A stretch of 64,000 nucleotides of DNA, taken from assembly GCA_963699155.1 (NCBI GenBank), contig OY969414.1, positions 747,757 to 811,756 of the forward strand, given 5' to 3'. The notes beneath the pieces are model-generated. The model was not told the DNA's origin. It made no database searches and was given only the letters and a program-made list of their open reading frames with translations. A program made the translations under genes and the position numbers. Source of the stretch: an uncultured Chlamydiales bacterium (GTDB lineage: Bacteria; Chlamydiota; Chlamydiia; Chlamydiales; JAAKFR01). Each line of letters opens with the position of its first letter. Position 1 is the stretch's first letter. Below, piece after piece: positions 45,290 through 54,462 of this stretch.

Positions 45290-46249
45290 ATGTTCCAGGA
45301 TCTTTTAGTCAAACAGAAGCAGCATCTCGATACCTACTTCGATCAGATCGATAGTGCCAGTTGTGAAGCACTTGTCGATGCCATTTTAGCCTGCCAAGGG
45401 GTTCTCTATTTTACCGGGATCGGTAAGAGCGGTTTCGTCGCTCAAAAAATTGCCGCCACAATGCTCTCGACAGGGACCAAAGCCTTCTTTCTGCCACCGA
45501 TCGATGCGCTCCATGGTGATCTCGGCATGGTCGCTAAAAAAGATCTCGTCCTGATTTTGAGTAAGAGCGGCGAAACTGAGGAGCTTCTCCAGCTTCTGCC
45601 CTCGATTCGCAATAAAGGGGCAGCCATCGTCGCCATTACCTCAGAAAAGGGGAGCCGCCTGGCTAAGGGGGCCGATCGGACGGTCATTCTTCCTTGCGAA
45701 AACGAACTCTGCCCTTTCGATCTCGCACCGACCACCTCGACCGAAGTGCAACTGCTCTTTGGAGATGCTCTGGCGATTGCCTTGATGGAAAAGAGAGGTT
45801 TCAGTCTCGCCCAGTTTGCAGAGAACCATCCGGCAGGCCGCATCGGCAGGCGAAGCGCTCTCAAAGTGCGTGATCTGATGCTCGACGAGGAGCGCACACC
45901 TCTCTGTCTCTCCGACGATCGTTTAGAGGAAATTCTGGTCGATTTTTCGAGCAAGCGGTGCGGCTGCATGATCGTCATCGATAGCGACAAAAGACTGAAG
46001 GGCATTTTTACCGATGGCGACTTGCGACGCGCCCTCCAGGCAAAGGGGGAAATGGTCCTCCAACAACATGTAGGGGTACTAATGACCCAAACGCCGAAAT
46101 CGATTTCTGTGGATGCCGCTGCCTGGGATGCTTTGAAGCTGATGGAATCAGATCAAAAGCATCCTGTCATGGTTCTCCCCGTTCTCGATGATGAGGAGGC
46201 TGTCGTCGGCATCATCAAGATGCACGATCTGATCCAAGCTGGTCTTTGA
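45290..46249 (+). CDS. kdsD: Arabinose-5-phosphate isomerase (KpsF/GutQ, SIS plus CBS domains)
   Basis: TGIGKSG, HGDLG, APTTST, HPAG, GIFTDGDLRR. Confidence 0.95.
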   Translation: MFQDLLVKQKQHLDTYFDQIDSASCEALVDAILACQGVLYFTGIGKSGFVAQKIAATMLSTGTKAFFLPPIDALHGDLGMVAKKDLVLILSKSGETEELLQLLPSIRNKGAAIVAITSEKGSRLAKGADRTVILPCENELCPFDLAPTTSTEVQLLFGDALAIALMEKRGFSLAQFAENHPAGRIGRRSALKVRDLMLDEERTPLCLSDDRLEEILVDFSSKRCGCMIVIDSDKRLKGIFTDGDLRRALQAKGEMVLQQHVGVLMTQTPKSISVDAAAWDALKLMESDQKHPVMVLPVLDDEEAVVGIIKMHDLIQAGL

Positions 46250-46838
46250 GTGACGCACCACCCCATGCAAGCTGGTCTTTGATTTCCTGACTTGTTGCTT
46301 CTCTGATTTCCTTCCATGTTGCTTCTGTAAAGTAAGGCATGAAAAGATCACAACCCTCAAACTGCTGCTGGCTATGAGCCATGAAGGCGGCACCATCAAA
46401 ATGGGGCTGCAGGACTTTGATTTTTTCCCGACTCTGCTTCTTTAGCCAGATCCCGATGCCATAGAGATCCTCTTTCTCCAAATAATCCATCTTCTCCAGG
46501 CAGGTTAGAGGAATCTGCATCAAAGGTTTGCCATTTCTTTTGAAAGTCAGCGACTCTGCATCGACTTGCAACAGGTGGGGATGGAGCTGCAAGCGCGAGA
46601 GCTGGCGGTAGGGCCATAATCCGAGCGCAATCAACGCCATCCCTGTCAGAAAAAGGGGAATTCCGACGATTTTCAGAAGAGAAAGGGGCAAAAATGTCCC
46701 TCCAATAATGAGCAGGAGTGCCCCAGCTCCACCGAGAATGGCCCCCCGTTTGAGTGAATGATTTAGGAGCTGAGAGCGGATGGCGCTGCGATAGATTTCT
46801 CTTTCCGTGAGACGATCCATGCAAATAGGATATTCCAT
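46215..46838 (-). CDS. Membrane hypothetical protein
   Basis: Two N-terminal TM segments followed by a soluble domain. Confidence 0.7.
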   Translation of the reverse strand: MEYPICMDRLTEREIYRSAIRSQLLNHSLKRGAILGGAGALLLIIGGTFLPLSLLKIVGIPLFLTGMALIALGLWPYRQLSRLQLHPHLLQVDAESLTFKRNGKPLMQIPLTCLEKMDYLEKEDLYGIGIWLKKQSREKIKVLQPHFDGAAFMAHSQQQFEGCDLFMPYFTEATWKEIREATSQEIKDQLAWGGASLKDQLGSDRAS

Positions 46839-47530
46839 ACACTATAACAAAAGATACGGAAGAATGAGAGCGAGGAAGCAAAACTGGCCTCGATCACCTC
46901 ATCGCCTTTCCCCTCTAAAATCCATTTTAAACGGGCTATATTGAAGAAGAAGAGTCCTTTTTCAATAGTTGATTCCGTGACACTACCCTCCTTCGCCCAT
47001 TCCTTGACGAGATAGCGGTGCCATCCTCGAAGGAGCTTTTCGCGGCTGTTTCCACCCTCACTGTCGACATAATGGTCCAAAACATAGTTCTCGGAAGGAA
47101 AGAGAGTCTCTTTTTTAAGTATAGGCTGCTGAAAATAGGCGTAGCCCACAACCAGCATGGGCAGAATCCAAACAGTTTTGCTTGCCCCTTCGATCTGAAA
47201 GAGCAGGAGAAAGGAGATGAGGATGGAGAAAAAGAGCCAGGCGAGGGCAAACGGGGGAGTCGCACTCAAAAAATGGCTCCCTAACGCTTTCCAGAAGGAA
47301 GGGACAGTTTTCTGAAGGGCTACCGAATAGCCCTCTAAAATGAGCCGTTGGTCACTGGGAGAGAGCTGTTGAAACAACTCATTTTTTTCATGCACCATCT
47401 CATAGAGAGCGAGCTGCGATTTATAGGCTACGATTGCTTTGACATAGGGTTGAAGCAACAGCCAAAATAAAAAAGAAAATGCCAAACAAAGATGGCAGAT
47501 GATTAAAATTTTTTTCTTGCGAGACATCAT
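46763..47530 (-). CDS. Membrane hypothetical protein
   Basis: About four hydrophobic segments. Confidence 0.7.
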   Translation of the reverse strand: MMSRKKKILIICHLCLAFSFLFWLLLQPYVKAIVAYKSQLALYEMVHEKNELFQQLSPSDQRLILEGYSVALQKTVPSFWKALGSHFLSATPPFALAWLFFSILISFLLLFQIEGASKTVWILPMLVVGYAYFQQPILKKETLFPSENYVLDHYVDSEGGNSREKLLRGWHRYLVKEWAKEGSVTESTIEKGLFFFNIARLKWILEGKGDEVIEASFASSLSFFRIFCYSVWNILFAWIVSRKEKSIAAPSALSS

Positions 47531-47558
47531 TTAACGACACTTCTATAATTTATTCCCT

Positions 47559-48419
47559 ATGCGTATAAAGAGAAACTTATTTTTCTTAGTTATCTTTGGT
47601 TTATTGAGTTGGTTGGCCATTTATTCATATAACCATGTGACCGATGGTTTCAGTATCTATCAGATGAGCTCCTCTCTGCCTCCCTGCCCACAATTTGAGG
47701 TGGCATTGACTCATGAGAAAAAAGAGAGTCTCCAACAGGTTTTAGATCAGCCCTTCCGTTACATGGGTAAAGGATGCCAGTTTTATGTCTTTTCCAGCGC
47801 TGATAATCACTATGTGATCAAATTTCTTAAGCAGAAACATCTCAGGCAGTTTGAATGGCTGCAGCGCCTTCCCATGCCCCATCCGTGGCGTAAGCTCGCT
47901 GACCAAAAAATAGAGAGGCGCAAGGAGCGGGTAGAACGTCTCTTTTCTAGCTGCAAATTGGCTTATGAGAAGATGGCAGAAGAGACGGGGCTTCTCTATG
48001 TCCATCTCAACCAGATACCTGCATTAGAAAAAGAGATCCTGCTTATCGATAAGTTGGGTCTCAACCATCATGTGGCGATCGACGATTATGAATTTGTGAT
48101 TCAGAAAAAAGCAGTACCCGTTAAAGAGGCGTTGGCCGATCTGACACCCGAAGAGGTGGCTCACAAAATCGAAGAGCTGGCCCACCTCGTATTAGCCCGC
48201 TGTCAAAAAGGGATTCGAGATCGAGACCGCTCCTTTGTCCAGAATGTGGCCTTTTCTGCCAGCGAAGGGAGAGCTATTTTTACCGATGTGGGTCAATTTT
48301 ATGAAGACCCAACTATCCTCTTAGAGGAAGAACAGGCAAAAGATTTAGCGAAGCGTCTCTCTAATCTCGGCTACTGGATGGGCCGCCATTTTCCCGATTT
48401 AGCCCAGACGGTTCCATGA
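47559..48419 (+). CDS. Signal-anchored protein with kinase-like motifs
   Basis: GKGCQFYVF, YVIK, GIRDRD...N, FTDVG in kinase subdomain order. Confidence 0.55.
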   Translation: MRIKRNLFFLVIFGLLSWLAIYSYNHVTDGFSIYQMSSSLPPCPQFEVALTHEKKESLQQVLDQPFRYMGKGCQFYVFSSADNHYVIKFLKQKHLRQFEWLQRLPMPHPWRKLADQKIERRKERVERLFSSCKLAYEKMAEETGLLYVHLNQIPALEKEILLIDKLGLNHHVAIDDYEFVIQKKAVPVKEALADLTPEEVAHKIEELAHLVLARCQKGIRDRDRSFVQNVAFSASEGRAIFTDVGQFYEDPTILLEEEQAKDLAKRLSNLGYWMGRHFPDLAQTVP

Positions 48420-50392
48420 TCAATAGAGCTTCCGAATGTCACCTTTCCTACTGCTTAAGCCCACCTCGAGAAAGTTGTATCATGGCCACAACGATCACTC
48501 TCATTGCGCTTGCGGGCATTTCCACACTCACTTTTTGTCTACTGGGCCATTTTCAACTGATCTCGGGTATTAATACCCTTTCCCAGACCGTTTTAGCATG
48601 CTCCAGTGGGGGATTGGCGGTCGTGGCTTTAGTGATGAGTGCAGTGAGTGCGCTGAAGGAGAAGGAGCCTATCCTTCCAGAGATTCACGATCCTGCCACT
48701 CTCAAAGCCACTTTGGACCAGCTCTGTACAGGGATGATCGAGGCCTTAGAAGCCGAAGATCCGATGGATACGATCCATCAATTGGCTGAAGAGATTCCTT
48801 TAGAACTTTTGGAAAAGGCTGTTCAAACGGCCTTCAATCACAAAAGCAGCGCACAAAAGCTCGCACAAAGCATGATAGGACAGGCACAATTTTTTGTGGC
48901 AGCAAGACATCCTCCCACACCGAGCTGTCAAGCCAGGATGAGAGATCTCGGTGATAAGATCTTGGGCCTCTTTGATAACCTCTTTTGGGCATTCGGGATT
49001 TCAGAGTTCTTTAAACCTTCCGAAAACGACCAACATGCCGATGCCAAATTCCAAAAAATTGTAATGCTCATCAGCTTCTTTACCTTGATGACATCGACAA
49101 TCCTTCCTCTTCTCGGTATTACGACGGGATCCTCCGTCGTTGCAGGGATTCTCATCTTTTTCTGCGTCATGAGCCTGATCTGGCCAAAGATCCGCCCCTT
49201 TTCCACCCATCTTCCCGAAGCGGAAAATTGGTCGAAACAGGTCCGTATGGGCGAAATGATAGCTCCCTTAGGTCGTAAAGAGGCCGTCGACAGAATCCGG
49301 GATGCTCTCAATCAGCGCCAGCCGGTCATGATTGTCGGCCCCTCTGGAATCGGTAAAACCATAGCTGTACAAGCACTGACAGCTGCCATTGAGCAGGGCA
49401 AAAGTCCTGAACTGGCTGGCAAAGAGGTGATCTACTTTAATATGGCCGACCTCATCTCACACTATGATTACTCGGGCTACCGCAACACCATTTTAAAACG
49501 GATCTCTGCAGCCGGCATCCACAATTATATCCCTGTCATCGATAACCTCCTGAAGGCCTATAAGCCTCATGAGGGTACCGATGTCGGAAGCCAGCTGCGC
49601 ACCTTTCTCGATGACAAACCCGAAAATAGTTTTAAGTTTTTCATTGGGATCGCCGAATTGGAAGAATATGCGGAATGGGCCGCTACTTCTGAAGCTTCTG
49701 AAGGACGCCGTTTCGATAATGTCGTTTATGTCAGAGATACGAGCATAGAAAATACGCTCGCCATTCTTCGCCGCCACATTTTACAAGAAGCGCCCTACGC
49801 ATTGGTGGAAAAGGGGGCATTAGAATTTCTCTATGAGTCGACTAAAGACAAGGGCCCTCTTCCCTTATTCCCTCTCCAGATCCTCAAACGATGCATCACA
49901 AAGATCTCACAAACTCAAAAGACGCCACTTGCACAGAAGAGAGATCACGAAGAAAGTAAGCTCTTAGAAGCCCACTCTGAGGGTGCTGTGAGCGGTGATG
50001 AAGTGGTCTCTACGAAGATCGATACGTGTGAAAATCATTTAAAAGTGGTGCAAGAAAAGTTTGATCCGCAGAAGAAAGATGCCGACCTTGTAGCAGCAGC
50101 TCGAAATGCTTTAATCAAAGTACGTGAAGCCAAATTCCAGGCCGTCTTAGATACAGTATCCTCAGAAGAGAATCAAAACAAGCTGACAGAATTCTTGCTG
50201 CTGAAATATTTCTTCGAGAGGCATCTCGAAGAGGCCATCCGAACTACAAGTCAAAAAATTCCCGGCTTTCGCGCCACGATCAATCGTGAGCTGGTCCAGG
50301 AGGCTCTCAAGGAATATGAGGAAAGCCATCGAGAGCAGATCCAAGCTGTGCAAGAAGGTCAAAAACATAAAAAAGACCGTTTAAAAACATGA
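48416..50392 (+). CDS. Membrane-anchored ClpB-NBD1-like AAA+ protein, paralog A (Walker B degenerate)
   Basis: GPSGIGKT, PELAGKEVIYFNM, PVIDNL, GRRF; four TM segments. Confidence 0.8.
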   Translation: MINRASECHLSYCLSPPRESCIMATTITLIALAGISTLTFCLLGHFQLISGINTLSQTVLACSSGGLAVVALVMSAVSALKEKEPILPEIHDPATLKATLDQLCTGMIEALEAEDPMDTIHQLAEEIPLELLEKAVQTAFNHKSSAQKLAQSMIGQAQFFVAARHPPTPSCQARMRDLGDKILGLFDNLFWAFGISEFFKPSENDQHADAKFQKIVMLISFFTLMTSTILPLLGITTGSSVVAGILIFFCVMSLIWPKIRPFSTHLPEAENWSKQVRMGEMIAPLGRKEAVDRIRDALNQRQPVMIVGPSGIGKTIAVQALTAAIEQGKSPELAGKEVIYFNMADLISHYDYSGYRNTILKRISAAGIHNYIPVIDNLLKAYKPHEGTDVGSQLRTFLDDKPENSFKFFIGIAELEEYAEWAATSEASEGRRFDNVVYVRDTSIENTLAILRRHILQEAPYALVEKGALEFLYESTKDKGPLPLFPLQILKRCITKISQTQKTPLAQKRDHEESKLLEAHSEGAVSGDEVVSTKIDTCENHLKVVQEKFDPQKKDADLVAAARNALIKVREAKFQAVLDTVSSEENQNKLTEFLLLKYFFERHLEEAIRTTSQKIPGFRATINRELVQEALKEYEESHREQIQAVQEGQKHKKDRLKT

Positions 50393-52332
50393 TCACACTT
50401 CCACTCAACTATACTTCAGAGCATTGGACCGTTTCTGGAAATCAACAGCAGGCAAAAGAAGCGCAGGTATTAATTGTTTCAGGGCTCGCGGCTGCAGCGA
50501 TTGTACTCGTAACCTATTCGCTGCTCTCCTATTTTCAGGTCGTGAACAGCATCAATGCCATTGCTCAGTGGAGTTTGTTGGGAGCTGGGGGAGCTTCCGT
50601 TGTCGCTGCTGCCCTCCTTTCGTTTTTCTCCCCCAAAGAGCTACCCTCGGTTTCCATCACCAGCCCGGAAGAATTGAAGATTCACTTAGAAAAACTGTGT
50701 CGAGAAATGGTCCAGGGGGAGGATCCTCTCGAAGCGATGCAGAAGATTATGGAAAGCCTTCCTCTAGACATGTTGGAGAAAGCTGTGGGAAGTCAAGGCG
50801 CTCTGCAATTGGCTCGAGATATGGTTGTGGAGTCTGAGTTCTATTTTAATGCCAATGAGACATTCTCTCAGACTCTTCAGGCAAAGATGAAAAACCTCCT
50901 CTATACCCTCATCAGCATCATCGATAGTACCTTAGCGATTTTGGGAATCGCCGATTTCTGTAAGCCCTCTGAAAGTAGCTTTCATGCCGATTTCAAATTC
51001 CAGAGGATCATGATGATTATCAGCCTCTTTACTCTTCTAACAGCCACTTTACTTCCGCTTCTGGGTGTCACCTCAGGGGCCTCCATCGTCGGAGGAGTCA
51101 TGCTTCTAATTGCTTTGCTCAGCTTGATTTGGCCAAAGATCCGTCCCTCACTCGGTGAGCTGCCGCGTGGAGAAAATTGGTCGGAGCGGGTGCAGAAAGG
51201 CAAAATCTGGAATCCTGGAATGAGAGCGGAGCTGGTGCAAGAGATCTACCACTATTTGCGTGCGCATCGGCATGTCATGTTCATCGGACCATCGGGCATC
51301 GGTAAAACTAATCTCGCGCAGGAGATCACTCAAGGGATCGAGCAGGGAGAGTTGCCTGAGTTTGCAGGCAAAAAAGTTATCTATTTTAATATGGCTGAGC
51401 TGGCCGCCAGCGCAGATATCTTTAGCAATGAGAACATGATCTTAAAAAGGATCGAAGAGGCTGTAGGCGATCGAGCAGAGGACTATGTTTTAGTTTTTGA
51501 TGAAGCCCATGCCGCTTTCGCTGACCTCACATTTGGAAATAAGTTTAAAACCTTCCTCGACAAAATGCCTTACGTCCTCTGCATGACGACAGCTGAGGAG
51601 TATATGAAGTTTATTTTTATCGATCAGGCAGCAGGCGATCGCCGATTTGTGAAGCTTAATGTTGGTAGTACAACACCCGAAGAAACTGAGGCGATCGTCA
51701 GCTATGACATTTTAAGAAAGGCTCCTGCAACACTCATGGAAGAGGGTGCTCTCGAGCATCTCATCGAACAGACAAAGGAGTTTCCACAGCCTCTTTCGGC
51801 TCTCACCTTTGCTTCCCAAGCCCTCATGGAGCTCAATCTGCCCCATTACACTCCAAAGATGAAAGAACTCCAGCAGACGAAAAAAGAGCGCCTTCTCATG
51901 GGAGCGAGAGGGGTAGTTCTAGGAGCTGCTTCTCAAACAGGGGACCAAAAACGATTTCAGACAGTTGAAGGGTCAAAAAAAACAATTGCGCAACTGGACC
52001 AAGAGGTGGCTCTCGAAGAAGAAAAGCTGCATCAACTAAAAAAACTCAAAGAAGAGCTGACCGCTGTGAGGAAAACAAAATACCAGACTGTACGCTCTAT
52101 CGACCAATCAGGACCCTCAGAAGTCGAACTCAACCAACTGCTCCTTCTGAAATATCTTCTCGAACCCAAACTCGAAGAGGCGATCAAAAAAATCTCTGCC
52201 GATATGAAAGTGGATTCACTATTCAATCGTGAGATCATTGATAAAGTCATCGCCGCCGAAAAAGAGAACCAAGAAAAAAGAAAAGTGGCTATGGAGCAGG
52301 CAAAAAAGGCATCCGAAGCGCGCCAGGTTTAA
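50389..52332 (+). CDS. Membrane-anchored ClpB-NBD1-like AAA+ protein, paralog B
   Basis: GPSGIGKT, PEFAGKKVIYFNM, LVFDEAH, TTAEEY, DRRF; four TM segments; C-terminal coiled coil. Confidence 0.85.
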   Translation: MITLPLNYTSEHWTVSGNQQQAKEAQVLIVSGLAAAAIVLVTYSLLSYFQVVNSINAIAQWSLLGAGGASVVAAALLSFFSPKELPSVSITSPEELKIHLEKLCREMVQGEDPLEAMQKIMESLPLDMLEKAVGSQGALQLARDMVVESEFYFNANETFSQTLQAKMKNLLYTLISIIDSTLAILGIADFCKPSESSFHADFKFQRIMMIISLFTLLTATLLPLLGVTSGASIVGGVMLLIALLSLIWPKIRPSLGELPRGENWSERVQKGKIWNPGMRAELVQEIYHYLRAHRHVMFIGPSGIGKTNLAQEITQGIEQGELPEFAGKKVIYFNMAELAASADIFSNENMILKRIEEAVGDRAEDYVLVFDEAHAAFADLTFGNKFKTFLDKMPYVLCMTTAEEYMKFIFIDQAAGDRRFVKLNVGSTTPEETEAIVSYDILRKAPATLMEEGALEHLIEQTKEFPQPLSALTFASQALMELNLPHYTPKMKELQQTKKERLLMGARGVVLGAASQTGDQKRFQTVEGSKKTIAQLDQEVALEEEKLHQLKKLKEELTAVRKTKYQTVRSIDQSGPSEVELNQLLLLKYLLEPKLEEAIKKISADMKVDSLFNREIIDKVIAAEKENQEKRKVAMEQAKKASEARQV

Positions 52333-53408
52333 CTTTGTTGAGGTTCGGGAATCGTCTTTCGTAGAAAGATCATTTCTCGTTTAAACTGCACAAACCTTTC
52401 ATGACATAGCTCCTCCTCTGTTCTACCAAGCGATGCAATCATACAAGCCTCATAGGCTATTTCCGTTTTCTTAATTTCATAAGACAATCTTTCAACGTGT
52501 CTATGGCGCTCGGTTGGGGAGAGTGTGGCAAATTGAAGTCCAAAAGAGGCTTGGCGAGTCATTTCCATTTGGAGATCGAGCTGCAATGGAAAAGCATATT
52601 GAGAGGGATCGATCAGCTGCATTGTAGAGAGCGCTTCTTCAGACAGTTCACAAGCTTCATGATCATTTCCCAGAATATGCTCATGGAGTGCAGCTGCTCT
52701 CAAACAATTAGCTGAGGTAAACAAATTCTCTGTGAAGGGAGCATGGATGTAATCGCGAGGTGTTAATCCCTTAAAGCGATGCTTTCCTGGAGATAGCTTT
52801 AAAAAAGCAGTGGCAGCGGATTGGAGGAGAGAGCTTGCGACAGCGTTGCCTCTCTGAGTCAATTTTTTAAAGGCTTCAGGGGAAGATTCTCTGGGCGCCT
52901 TATCCAAAATTCCGCCCTCATAAATTAGCTTGATCCCTTTTTGAAGCCAGGTGAGTTGTTCGAACGGGCTTTCAGCCAATTCCGCAGCATCTACGGCAGC
53001 TTCTGCTTCATTGATCTGTTCTCTCCATAATGTATAACGTGTTCTCCAGTTCTTGCCAGTGCTCTCTATAGCTGATTGAGCTCTGCGAGCAGAGAGTGCT
53101 CGGACAATCGGATCTTCATCATCCCCTCTGTAGGATTGTGAGGGTAGGGATCCTTTTTCGAGATAATTCCGAAGATCGCCTGGGGAAATTGATAGTTGAC
53201 GGCAGGTCCCATTCGCGATTCTTGGGGCAGTCGGGGAATAACTCTTTTGAGGCATTGCGGCGACGAGTGTGGCACCCAGGGGAATGAGGATTATCAAAAT
53301 AATACAAGCGATAGCGAGTGCCTTTGTCGCATCAAATCGAAAGGAGGCTCTTGGAGGTGGCTCTGTTGCAGCAATAGGAGGATTGTCTCGGGAAACTGGA
53401 GCTGCCAT
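52329..53408 (-). CDS. Membrane-anchored hypothetical protein
   Basis: N-terminal TM segment, helical remainder. Confidence 0.7.
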   Translation of the reverse strand: MAAPVSRDNPPIAATEPPPRASFRFDATKALAIACIILIILIPLGATLVAAMPQKSYSPTAPRIANGTCRQLSISPGDLRNYLEKGSLPSQSYRGDDEDPIVRALSARRAQSAIESTGKNWRTRYTLWREQINEAEAAVDAAELAESPFEQLTWLQKGIKLIYEGGILDKAPRESSPEAFKKLTQRGNAVASSLLQSAATAFLKLSPGKHRFKGLTPRDYIHAPFTENLFTSANCLRAAALHEHILGNDHEACELSEEALSTMQLIDPSQYAFPLQLDLQMEMTRQASFGLQFATLSPTERHRHVERLSYEIKKTEIAYEACMIASLGRTEEELCHERFVQFKREMIFLRKTIPEPQQS

Positions 53409-53424
53409 ATTTTTCTCCTAGGAT

Positions 53425-54462
53425 CTATTTTTTTCGGGAATTTTTCTTGGGAGGCGGAGCTTCCGCTTTGACTTTGCTTTTAGGGGCAGCTTTCTTTTTG
53501 ACTGGCTCGTCCATTTCTTCATCATCATCCTCGTCTTCGTCTTTTTCACTGAAGGAGGGGATGGTAAACTCTCCTTCGAGGCCGAGCTGCATGGAGAGTT
53601 TGCGGAGGGAGGCAAATTTTTCGGAAAGGGCTTGCAGTTGACTTTCTGAATCGGAGCGGGTGGTGCCACGTAAGTGGGCCAAAAATTCCTCTTCGGTATC
53701 AAATTTTTCAGAGAAGGTGATTGAAGAGGCGGAGGTAATTTCGGGGAGGTAGAGGAAGCGGCGCACTGTGGGTGTTACCTGAGTGAAGATATCGCTTGTC
53801 ACCTGGGACTCAATTTCAATCTTGGCCACCTGCTTGGGCGGACGACCACGTTTAGGTCGGGGATTCAGTGCTTCGTTGGAATAGTAGGTTTCCGCCTTCT
53901 TCACAAGAGCGGAGCGTGCCTGGGCGAGATCTTTGGTAACTTTGGGTTCAAAGAGATGAATTTTGAGCTGCTCGATGGTAATGCGTGGAAGATCGAGATC
54001 CTCTTCAAAGACAAATTTAAAGCTATTATTGCGGAGCCATTCGATGATGCGCACACGTGAACGTTCTTGATAATATTGCTGCCACTTTTCTAGCTCAGTT
54101 TCGTTATCGTAGATGAATTCGAGAAACTGCTCACGGGCATCTTTAGAGCCGATGATATCGAGAAGTTTTTCTTTGGTATCGATGTCATAAACTTTTTCGT
54201 TGACAAACCCCTCCATGATCTTTTTGGTCTCATAGAAAGTCAATTTTGAGATGAGGGCATAGCGACCCGCCTGGGCTTTCAACTCTTCTTCCAGCTTTTC
54301 GATCTCCTCGACCTCTTTATCGAGGTCGACGAAGACAATAAAACCTTCGACGCGGTCTAGATAGAAATCGCGCTCATCATTCGATTTGGAGAAGGCATCC
54401 ATGAGTCGGAGGGCTCGAAGAATGAGGGGATTTTGTGCTTGAGGCTGAGAAGATTGTTTCAT
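53425..54462 (-). CDS. UPF0158 family protein
   Basis: RLMDAFSKSNDERDFYLDRVEG, KWQQYYQERSR; downstream of dapF as in chlamydiae. Confidence 0.85.
   Translation of the reverse strand: MKQSSQPQAQNPLILRALRLMDAFSKSNDERDFYLDRVEGFIVFVDLDKEVEEIEKLEEELKAQAGRYALISKLTFYETKKIMEGFVNEKVYDIDTKEKLLDIIGSKDAREQFLEFIYDNETELEKWQQYYQERSRVRIIEWLRNNSFKFVFEEDLDLPRITIEQLKIHLFEPKVTKDLAQARSALVKKAETYYSNEALNPRPKRGRPPKQVAKIEIESQVTSDIFTQVTPTVRRFLYLPEITSASSITFSEKFDTEEEFLAHLRGTTRSDSESQLQALSEKFASLRKLSMQLGLEGEFTIPSFSEKDEDEDDDEEMDEPVKKKAAPKSKVKAEAPPPKKNSRKK

Follow-up and report, generated by a model that had tools for sequence, protein, structure and literature searches.

A predicted membrane-anchored, ClpB-related AAA+ family of Chlamydiota, with a tandem pair carrying one intact and one degenerate set of hydrolysis motifs in an uncultured Chlamydiales genome

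The 64,000-nucleotide stretch of contig OY969414.1 (assembly GCA_963699155.1, positions 747,757 to 811,756 of the forward strand) from an uncultured Chlamydiales bacterium, termed the window, carries two overlapping genes, A and B, each encoding a protein with hydrophobic hairpins, a single AAA+ module and a coiled-coil tail. A and B are probably old, diverged paralogs of a Chlamydiota-named family of membrane-anchored, single-AAA+ derivatives of Hsp100/ClpB, with B active and A non-hydrolysing. What is new, and apparently undescribed, is the family itself, a branch of the Hsp100 lineage with Chlamydiota names only in which a first nucleotide-binding domain (NBD1) and a middle domain are joined to hairpins like those of chlamydial inclusion membrane (Inc) proteins.

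Architecture and homology of the two proteins

The open reading frames (ORFs) of A (48416..50392, +, 658 amino acids) and B (50389..52332, +, 647 amino acids) meet at a junction that reads aaaacATGAtcaca, in which the ATGA at 50389-50392 places the TGA of A over the ATG of B. The translations align near full length with 34% identity (638 columns, E 5e-94, BLASTP), confirming the two paralogs of about 650 residues with an ATGA overlap that an earlier note had described from the letters of the window. Both ORFs match the family profile (A, E 2.0e-238; B, E 5.4e-261), and a chance origin is dismissed because these matches lie at E 1e-238 or better. The features of A and then of B are arranged from the N to the C terminus as follows.

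48416..50392, +: gene A, 658 amino acids, degenerate hydrolysis motifs (ORF list, BLASTP, family profile)
48485..48655, +: A hydrophobic hairpin 1, residues ~24-80 (hydropathy)
48656..49054, +: A family-specific soluble N-domain, residues ~81-213 (family alignment)
49055..49189, +: A hydrophobic hairpin 2, residues ~214-258, the conserved membrane anchor of the family (hydropathy, alignment)
49214..49900, +: A NBD1-like AAA+ module, residues ~267-495, approximate limits (NCBIfam, PDB and profile searches)
49337..49360, +: A Walker A GPSGIGKT, intact, residues 308-315 (motif location, alignment)
49532..49549, +: A degenerate Walker B PVIDNL, residues 373-378, Asp kept and Glu replaced by Asn (alignment)
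49643..49669, +: A degenerate sensor-1 IGIAELEEY, the Thr-Thr of the family replaced by Ala-Glu (alignment)
49703..49714, +: A Arg-finger motif GRRF, intact (alignment)
49901..50320, +: A middle-domain-like coiled-coil tail and returning helix, residues ~496-635, approximate (4hse/1qvr alignment to residues 629-635, profiles)
50389..52332, +: gene B, 647 amino acids, all catalytic motifs (ORF list, family profile)
50467..50628, +: B hydrophobic hairpin 1, residues ~27-80 (hydropathy, alignment)
50629..51003, +: B family-specific soluble N-domain, residues ~81-205 (alignment)
51004..51138, +: B hydrophobic hairpin 2, residues ~206-250 (hydropathy, alignment)
51163..51828, +: B NBD1-like AAA+ module, residues ~259-480 (PDB, profiles, alignment)
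51286-51309, +: B Walker A GPSGIGKT, residues 300-307 (motif location)
51412-51435, +: B pore-loop segment (alignment)
51490-51510, +: B Walker B LVFDEAH, residues 368-374 (motif location)
51577-51603, +: B sensor-1 (motif location)
51637-51648, +: B Arg-finger motif DRRF (motif location)
51829..52263, +: B middle-domain-like coiled coil and returning helix, residues ~481-625 (profiles)
52141-52155, +: B LLLKY, aligned with the ClpB motif-2 Arg-Tyr (profile alignment)

The Kyte-Doolittle plots (19-residue windows, threshold 1.6) show two bilobed hydrophobic blocks in each protein, at residues ~24-80 and ~214-258 of A and ~27-80 and ~206-250 of B, in agreement with the two hairpins and roughly four transmembrane (TM) segments proposed earlier, the count of four TM segments per protein being a hydropathy-based reading. 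The loops between the lobes are 5-11 residues long and uncharged. Hairpin 2 is conserved across the family alignment; hairpin 1 is present in 8 of 34 aligned N-terminal regions, all from the taxonomic family of the window (f1). The core layout of the family is a polar N terminus, a helical domain of ~150 amino acids, one bilobed hairpin, NBD1 and the middle domain. The N-domain has no significant match in the PDB (best E 0.041) and no consistent Pfam family across 34 members.

Single-protein searches of NCBIfam and the PDB (phmmer) place the soluble part of each protein in the NBD1 region of ClpB/ClpA/ClpC at E ~1e-10. A family profile built from 52 members matches Thermus thermophilus ClpB (PDB code 1qvr) at E 3.1e-42, with profile positions 208-561 corresponding to ClpB residues 157-512. 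With this profile, the top 44 PDB sequences, all at E <= 1.5e-23, are Hsp100-type chains (ClpB, Hsp104, ClpC, ClpE, ClpA and HSP101), two of them being labelled otherwise (8xon_S and 2p65_A), and the next match is midasin at 2e-11. Profile-profile comparison by hhalign against 18 ClpB sequences from this genome and its relatives (99.8%, E 1.3e-28, 349 columns) aligns family positions 212-578 with ClpB 167-544, a span that begins at the first helix of NBD1, takes in the lid and the entire middle domain, and ends at the linker before the second nucleotide-binding domain (NBD2). Judged from these alignments the AAA+ module is a homolog of the Hsp100 NBD1, as the ClpB/ClpA pattern seen earlier had indicated, and since the span covers the whole middle domain (ClpB ~400-544) the tail is a true ClpB middle-domain homolog, going beyond the likeness in appearance that had been noted. 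Both proteins end ~25 residues past the position aligned to the ClpB inter-NBD linker. The ESM Atlas gives leads below 0.9 only, to short Clp NBD1-type clusters.

The domains that complete a canonical ClpB are not found. NBD2 is absent from A and B, which stop near the inter-NBD linker, and the best 150 matches to an N-domain profile do not exceed 743 amino acids. The Pfam search of A and B gives no Clp_N match for the Clp N-terminal repeat domain and no M41 protease match at E <= 0.1, the C terminus being a ClpB-like coiled coil, and the NCBIfam ClpB scores are 36-39 bits compared with equivalog cutoffs of 1232-1417. In comparison with the NBD1 and middle-domain fragment of ClpB/Hsp104 (PDB codes 4hse and 1qvr), A and B share a homologous NBD1, including the Walker A, Walker B, sensor-1 and RRF Arg-finger elements, the lid subdomain, and a long coiled-coil middle domain whose insertion point, judged by sequence profiles, is likewise in the small subdomain of NBD1; the alignment continues to the inter-NBD linker. 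They differ in lacking the Clp N-domain and NBD2 and in carrying a membrane anchor and a family-specific N-domain in front.

Pfam itself returns weak generic P-loop matches only, the top one for B being NACHT, and this raises the reading of A and B as signaling NTPases of the STAND/NACHT type. The NACHT score for B (31.1 bits) lies above its cutoff of 26.7 and is accompanied by weak nSTAND and AAA_16 matches, but it is limited to B residues 295-364 and profile positions 2-71 of 167, which is the P-loop region. The matches to the Hsp100 NBD1 and middle domain are far stronger (E 3e-42; 99.8%) and PADLOC gives no matches of note, leaving the STAND/NACHT reading hardly credible. A defense-system reading was rejected likewise, PADLOC giving marginal P-loop matches only.

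The quoted motifs GPSGIGKT, PE[L/F]AGK.VIYFNM and RRF are all located in both translations, the second as SPELAGKEVIYFNM in A and LPEFAGKKVIYFNM in B. B has the entire Hsp100 NBD1 motif set, retaining Walker A, the Walker B Asp-Glu (DE), the sensor-1 Thr, the Arg finger and an aromatic pore-loop residue. A keeps Walker A (Gly-308, Gly-313 and Lys-314), the Walker B aspartate (Asp-376), the invariant arginine of the RRF motif (Arg-432) and hairpin 2, but departs at Walker B (L to P, E to N, I to L and H to L, giving DN) and at sensor-1 (TT to AE). The contrast between LVFDEAH in B (368-374) and PVIDNL in A (373-378), described before, is confirmed. The sensor-1 change is a further loss beyond those listed earlier, TT being present in 50 of 51 other aligned members compared with AE in A. 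B is predicted to be an active ATPase, and A is predicted to bind ATP without hydrolysing it.

Two further elements bear on the comparison with ClpB. Of 57 family rows, 44 (that of B included) have an aromatic residue in the segment aligned to the pore loop of ClpB NBD1. The Lys-Tyr of the B sequence LLLKY falls on the Arg-Tyr of ClpB motif 2, the tyrosine taking the position of Escherichia coli Tyr-503; the available text of PMC4023160 describes the ClpB middle domain as the Hsp70/DnaK-binding element and mutation of Tyr-503 as de-repressing ClpB. This column holds Tyr in 13 and Phe in 3 of 53 filled rows, and the tyrosine therefore does not have family-wide status.

Distribution of the family and history of the pair

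Searching 5.8 billion protein clusters with B as query gives 22 proteins, and the four of them with an organism name are all from Chlamydiota. A profile of the N-domain and hairpin 2, searched against 1.84 billion representatives of 50% identity clusters, matches 257 representatives at E <= 0.001, 213 at <= 1e-10 and 139 at <= 1e-30. The best 150 of these 257 matches are 146-743 amino acids long, and the two-ring form is not seen among them; most are of 550-700 amino acids, which argues that the N-terminal module travels with the AAA+/middle-domain part. Source annotations of the family read 'AAA family ATPase' or 'ClpA' only. In a census of 400 scored genomes of the phylum (one genome was not scorable), with three candidates scored per genome and a match defined as E <= 1e-40, the family is present in 77, including 9 of the 22 genomes from the taxonomic family of the window, and most positive genomes have a single copy. 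The family was not found in any of the 29 sampled genomes of family f19 (genome size 1.0-1.2 Mb).

A sister subfamily occurs in other chlamydial families, eight genomes of which were covered (loci L071-L078), some genomes holding both subfamilies. Its proteins are ~690-760 amino acids long, with one of 958, and share the overall layout with a different and longer N-domain; in seven of the eight a hydrophobic block directly precedes the NBD1/middle-domain module.

The earlier note had not recognized the system as a described one, and full-text literature searches likewise return no description of the family. For the architecture of NBD1 and middle domain combined with Inc-like hairpins no paper, Pfam entry or NCBIfam entry was found. 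The word 'atpase' occurs 0 times in the available text of two Inc surveys (PMC3048545 and PMC6925127), a count to which their supplementary Inc tables do not belong.

The expectation that the pairing and the Walker B asymmetry are conserved in relatives did not hold. Synteny with three same-genus genomes runs through isocitrate dehydrogenase, a KpsF-like gene, two small membrane ORFs, the AAA+ site, UPF0158, DapF, ClpP and GlyA, and each of the three has one family gene at the syntenic site. In G002 this is a B-type gene, 49% identical to B, that is cut by an IS630-like insertion sequence (IS) element into pieces of 499 and 183 amino acids; in G001 it is a 604-amino acid gene lacking the last part of the tail; and in G003 it is a 765-amino acid gene from another lineage. 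The element in G002 (L035 8706-9799, contig G002:C1) lies near the start of the middle domain and has a helix-turn-helix ORF of 181 and a DDE ORF of 179 amino acids.

Of 58 family rows that extend across Walker B, 55 read DE there; the other three are A (DN), a second copy in G111 and one tandem copy in G347. The G111 copy (L069, contig G111:C14) is unlinked, reads DG at Walker B and is altered in sensor-1 and the Arg finger as well; the G347 copy (L066, contig G347:C2) is degenerate in both Walker A and Walker B, and its neighbor in the tandem retains the motifs but is interrupted by a stop codon. A dead copy has thus arisen at least three times in the family, and tandem duplication recurs. 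The tandem pairs of G148 and G347, 45% and ~60% identical and 108 and 213 bp apart, are lineage-specific duplications, and in G148 both copies are intact.

In a tree of 26 rows, obtained by dropping five long-branch rows and one partial row from a tree of 32, B forms a clade with G002 and six metagenomic proteins (Shimodaira-Hasegawa-like approximate likelihood ratio test 99), and A groups with G001 and the B clade without resolved order (support 92). A sister topology of A and B is rejected by the approximately unbiased (AU) test (p 0.004), so that A and B are old paralogs and not the product of a recent duplication; A as a recent copy of B was accordingly rejected. No relative of A above 40% identity was found among the 5.8 billion clusters. 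One gene in each of three congeners, the DE of 55 of 58 rows and the lack of a relative of A above 40% together speak against a conserved two-component system, and the live/dead tandem is a peculiarity of this genome.

A dedicated active/inactive hetero-oligomeric machine (for example A3B3), conserved as a two-gene system, is highly improbable for the same reasons. Translational coupling and identical anchors in this genome speak for it, as does the loss of catalytic motifs from one copy in three of the genomes that hold two members of one subfamily (G000, G111 and G347), which hints at repeated live/dead origin. Set against these are the single copy of most positive genomes, the single gene at the syntenic site of the three congeners, the independent origin of the other tandem pairs, the two intact copies of G148 and the rejected sister relationship of A and B.

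Another possibility is that A is a functionless, decaying duplicate and B alone matters. The hydrolysis motifs of A are lost, no ortholog of it was found anywhere, its end branch is long (1.28 substitutions per site compared with a median of 0.76), and degenerate second copies are present in two other genomes, that of G347 beside a stop-broken copy. The 658-codon frame is nevertheless open, and the 4-bp overlap is kept with both neighbors. Of the family positions with at least 80% conservation, 58 of 76 (0.76) are retained in A and 56 of 75 (0.75) in B, the overall conservation of A thus equaling that of B, and several of the 18 departures of A sit in the hydrolysis motifs. The losses cluster there and spare Walker A, the Arg finger, hairpin 2 and the lid. 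The identity of A to the family lies at the 42nd percentile for the N-domain, the 34th for hairpin 2, the 76th for the lid and the 30th for the middle domain. In the AAA large subdomain A and B are both at the 8th percentile of family conservation, their other domains being ordinary. This pattern speaks against the neutral decay of A that had been named earlier as a refuting outcome, A appearing no more eroded than B and both having diverged in the motor domain, and a decaying A is considered unlikely. The low conservation of the large subdomain in both proteins could reflect co-evolving interfaces or relaxed constraint on both.

Genomic surroundings

Directly upstream of A lies a further ORF on the same strand.

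47559..48419, +: ORF of 286 amino acids with an N-terminal hydrophobic segment (ORF list, hydropathy)

This ORF and A likewise share an ATGA, stop over start, an overlap absent from the earlier note, and a candidate promoter (consensus match only) lies at 47521-47549, just 5' of it. The ATGA overlaps at both junctions and the promoter-like match give the 286-amino acid ORF, A and B the appearance of one transcription unit, and from the stop/start overlap the first is probably co-transcribed with A. Homologs of the 286-amino acid protein occur in 32 of 41 related genomes, some of them without the AAA+ family, and it was rejected as an obligate partner, being a member of a separate, wider family that is present without the AAA+ gene. 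That family is one of multi-copy hypothetical proteins whose closest Atlas clusters are mostly from Chlamydiota; G031 has 13 matches, of which nine lie in a row at G031:C4:21243-27966. The fold leads for the protein are weak Atlas neighbors (0.86-0.87) from WaaY/YrbL kinase-like families.

Two small ORFs further upstream, 46215-46838 (-, 207 amino acids) and 46763-47530 (-, 255 amino acids), are kept in the same-genus genomes without a family assignment, and the 207-amino acid protein has a 45-residue hydrophobic block that is also bilobed in appearance. Between B and the UPF0158 gene is an ORF of 359 amino acids (52329-53408, -) with one hydrophobic block, no Pfam or NCBIfam match, and no tblastn match at the syntenic loci of the three same-genus genomes. 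No conserved neighbor genes of the family were found in small flanks or in 19 loci extending up to ~6 kb on each side, and no tandem repeats were found in 47000-54000.

The GC content of A and B and that of their third codon positions (GC3) are native to the genome, and recent horizontal transfer of the pair was rejected on this ground. A canonical ClpB (865 amino acids) and a ClpC-like protein (826 amino acids) are encoded elsewhere in the genome, and the pair is therefore additional to the housekeeping Hsp100s. Ten short contigs of 151-180 bases, at low depth and from two soil-metagenome DNA runs (X1 and X2), are identical to the window within 48697-52071. No variants of the window were seen in three DNA runs, which offer short contigs only.

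Predicted function, membrane location and relation to known systems

By homology B would form rings on a membrane surface that use ATP to pull on or remodel protein substrates at the membrane, and the middle domain may regulate this motor, perhaps through an Hsp70. An even number of membrane passes would place all soluble parts on the same side of the membrane. With asparagine in place of the Walker B glutamate, A resembles engineered ClpB Walker B trap variants, such as the E279A/E678A form used in PMC4023160, and would bind ATP without hydrolysing it. A may enter mixed rings in which its intact Arg finger would serve the site of B and its own site would be ATP-locked. That A joins B in mixed assemblies, as a subunit without catalysis that acts as a trap or a regulator, is quite possible, if below an even chance, and is the most plausible role for A because of the coupled translation and the same anchors.

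Several observations weigh against the overall reading of an active B and a non-hydrolysing A in a membrane-anchored ClpB derivative. Ring formation by an NBD1-only protein and contact between A and B are assumptions. The pore-loop-segment aromatic is absent in 13 of 57 family rows, and tyrosine or phenylalanine fills a minority of the rows at the Tyr-503 column, so that threading and coupling to Hsp70 may hold for part of the family only. At conserved positions both A and B rank with the most divergent members, scoring 0.76 and 0.75 in a range of 0.60-0.99 over 52 members. Neither gene is clearly essential, since the same-genus orthologs are IS-disrupted (G002) or C-terminally short (G001), and the live/dead asymmetry is without orthologous precedent.

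The identity of the membrane divides the interpretation. A first view takes the proteins as Inc-type substrates of type III secretion that lodge in the inclusion membrane and expose the N-domain, NBD1 and middle domain to the host cytosol, where the motor would remodel host or bacterial proteins, possibly with a host Hsp70. The Inc hydropathy criterion given in the available text of PMC3048545 is two TM segments of 15-32 amino acids separated by a loop of less than 30, and A and B each hold two domains of this form with loops of 5-11 amino acids, bearing out the Inc-like bilobed character proposed earlier. The distribution is also suggestive: the named matches are all from Chlamydiota, members occur patchily, in 77 of 400 genomes overall and in 9 of 22 from the family of the window, the number of copies is variable and includes tandem duplications specific to single lineages, same-genus copies are truncated or broken by an IS element, and the 19 loci have no conserved neighbors. 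Neighboring small ORFs have long hydrophobic blocks too.

An N terminus rich in S/T/P/N/Q is a mark of type III secretion signals. In the family the first 24 residues have an S/T/P/N/Q fraction of 0.40 compared with 0.25 in 1475 crude ORFs of the genome (median percentile 0.90), a weak hint, as the sequences are kin, their starts are uncertain and the background is one genome. Against this view, the conserved hairpin lies ~170-230 residues from the N terminus in most members, the charged flanks of hairpin 2 equally fit ordinary insertion into the inner membrane, and none of the 29 sampled genomes of f19 is positive. The inclusion membrane is on balance a serious candidate, somewhat short of even.

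The second view places the proteins in the inner membrane of the bacterium, their motor on the cytoplasmic side, as membrane-tethered ClpB-like remodelers or extractors working perhaps with chlamydial DnaK through the middle domain. Cytoplasm-facing, membrane-anchored AAA+ machines such as FtsH are common in bacteria, and K/R residues flank hairpin 2 on the motor-bearing side. The homology of the middle domain to the Hsp70/DnaK-binding domain of ClpB (PMC4023160, available text) points the same way. A patchy, volatile and fast-evolving family without conserved neighbors would be unusual for a quality-control factor, however, the N termini before hairpin 1 have no net positive charge, and the Tyr-503-equivalent residue is not conserved family-wide. 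The inner-membrane location is a possibility only slightly behind the inclusion membrane, likewise below even.

Known Inc proteins resemble the family in having one or two bilobed hydrophobic domains with short loops, Chlamydiota names, a patchy and fast-evolving distribution and helical or coiled-coil soluble parts. They differ in that no Inc protein with an AAA+ motor domain was found in the literature searches, that the conserved hairpin of the family is far from the N terminus in most members, and that the family was not found in f19 (0 of 29). The boldest form of the inclusion-membrane view would make the family the first chlamydial inclusion-membrane proteins with an ATP-driven Hsp100 motor, type III-secreted, anchored by Inc hairpins, with NBD1 and middle domain in the host cytosol where they would extract or remodel proteins and possibly recruit host Hsp70, and with a live/dead two-subunit ring in this genome; as a whole this is doubtful.

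Known Hsp100 motors are soluble machines of one or two rings. FtsH and the extractors of the Msp1/ATAD1 type hold a single AAA+ ring at the membrane surface through N-terminal TM segments, an arrangement that A and B are predicted to share. A and B belong to another AAA+ clade than FtsH and Msp1, their best PDB matches being Hsp100 chains, have no M41 domain and carry a ClpB middle domain. Unlike A and B, the HSP101 that serves the PTEX translocon of Plasmodium is soluble, has two Hsp100 rings and docks onto membrane proteins distinct from itself. Its NBD1 is related in sequence to the family profile (E ~1e-34; PDB codes 6e10 and 6e11) and it is an Hsp100-type motor at the vacuole of an intravacuolar parasite, the functional analogy being speculative. 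Some AAA+ assemblies, for example Pex1/Pex6 with its D1 ring, have nucleotide-binding, non-hydrolysing sites beside active ones. The dead subunits or rings there are conserved obligate partners, whereas the dead paralog A is unique to one genome.

The family, with its 257 clusters at 50% identity, has the size to deserve a curated family model. A paralog dead in Walker B and sensor-1 next to a live one provides a natural setting in which to ask how an Hsp100 ring is tuned by subunits that do not hydrolyse ATP. If the motor is on the side of the bacterial cytoplasm, the family would be a protease-free membrane counterpart of ClpB. If it is on the host side, the family would represent a new effector activity at the pathogen vacuole, ATP-driven protein remodeling, and would parallel in bacteria the Hsp100 of the malaria translocon.

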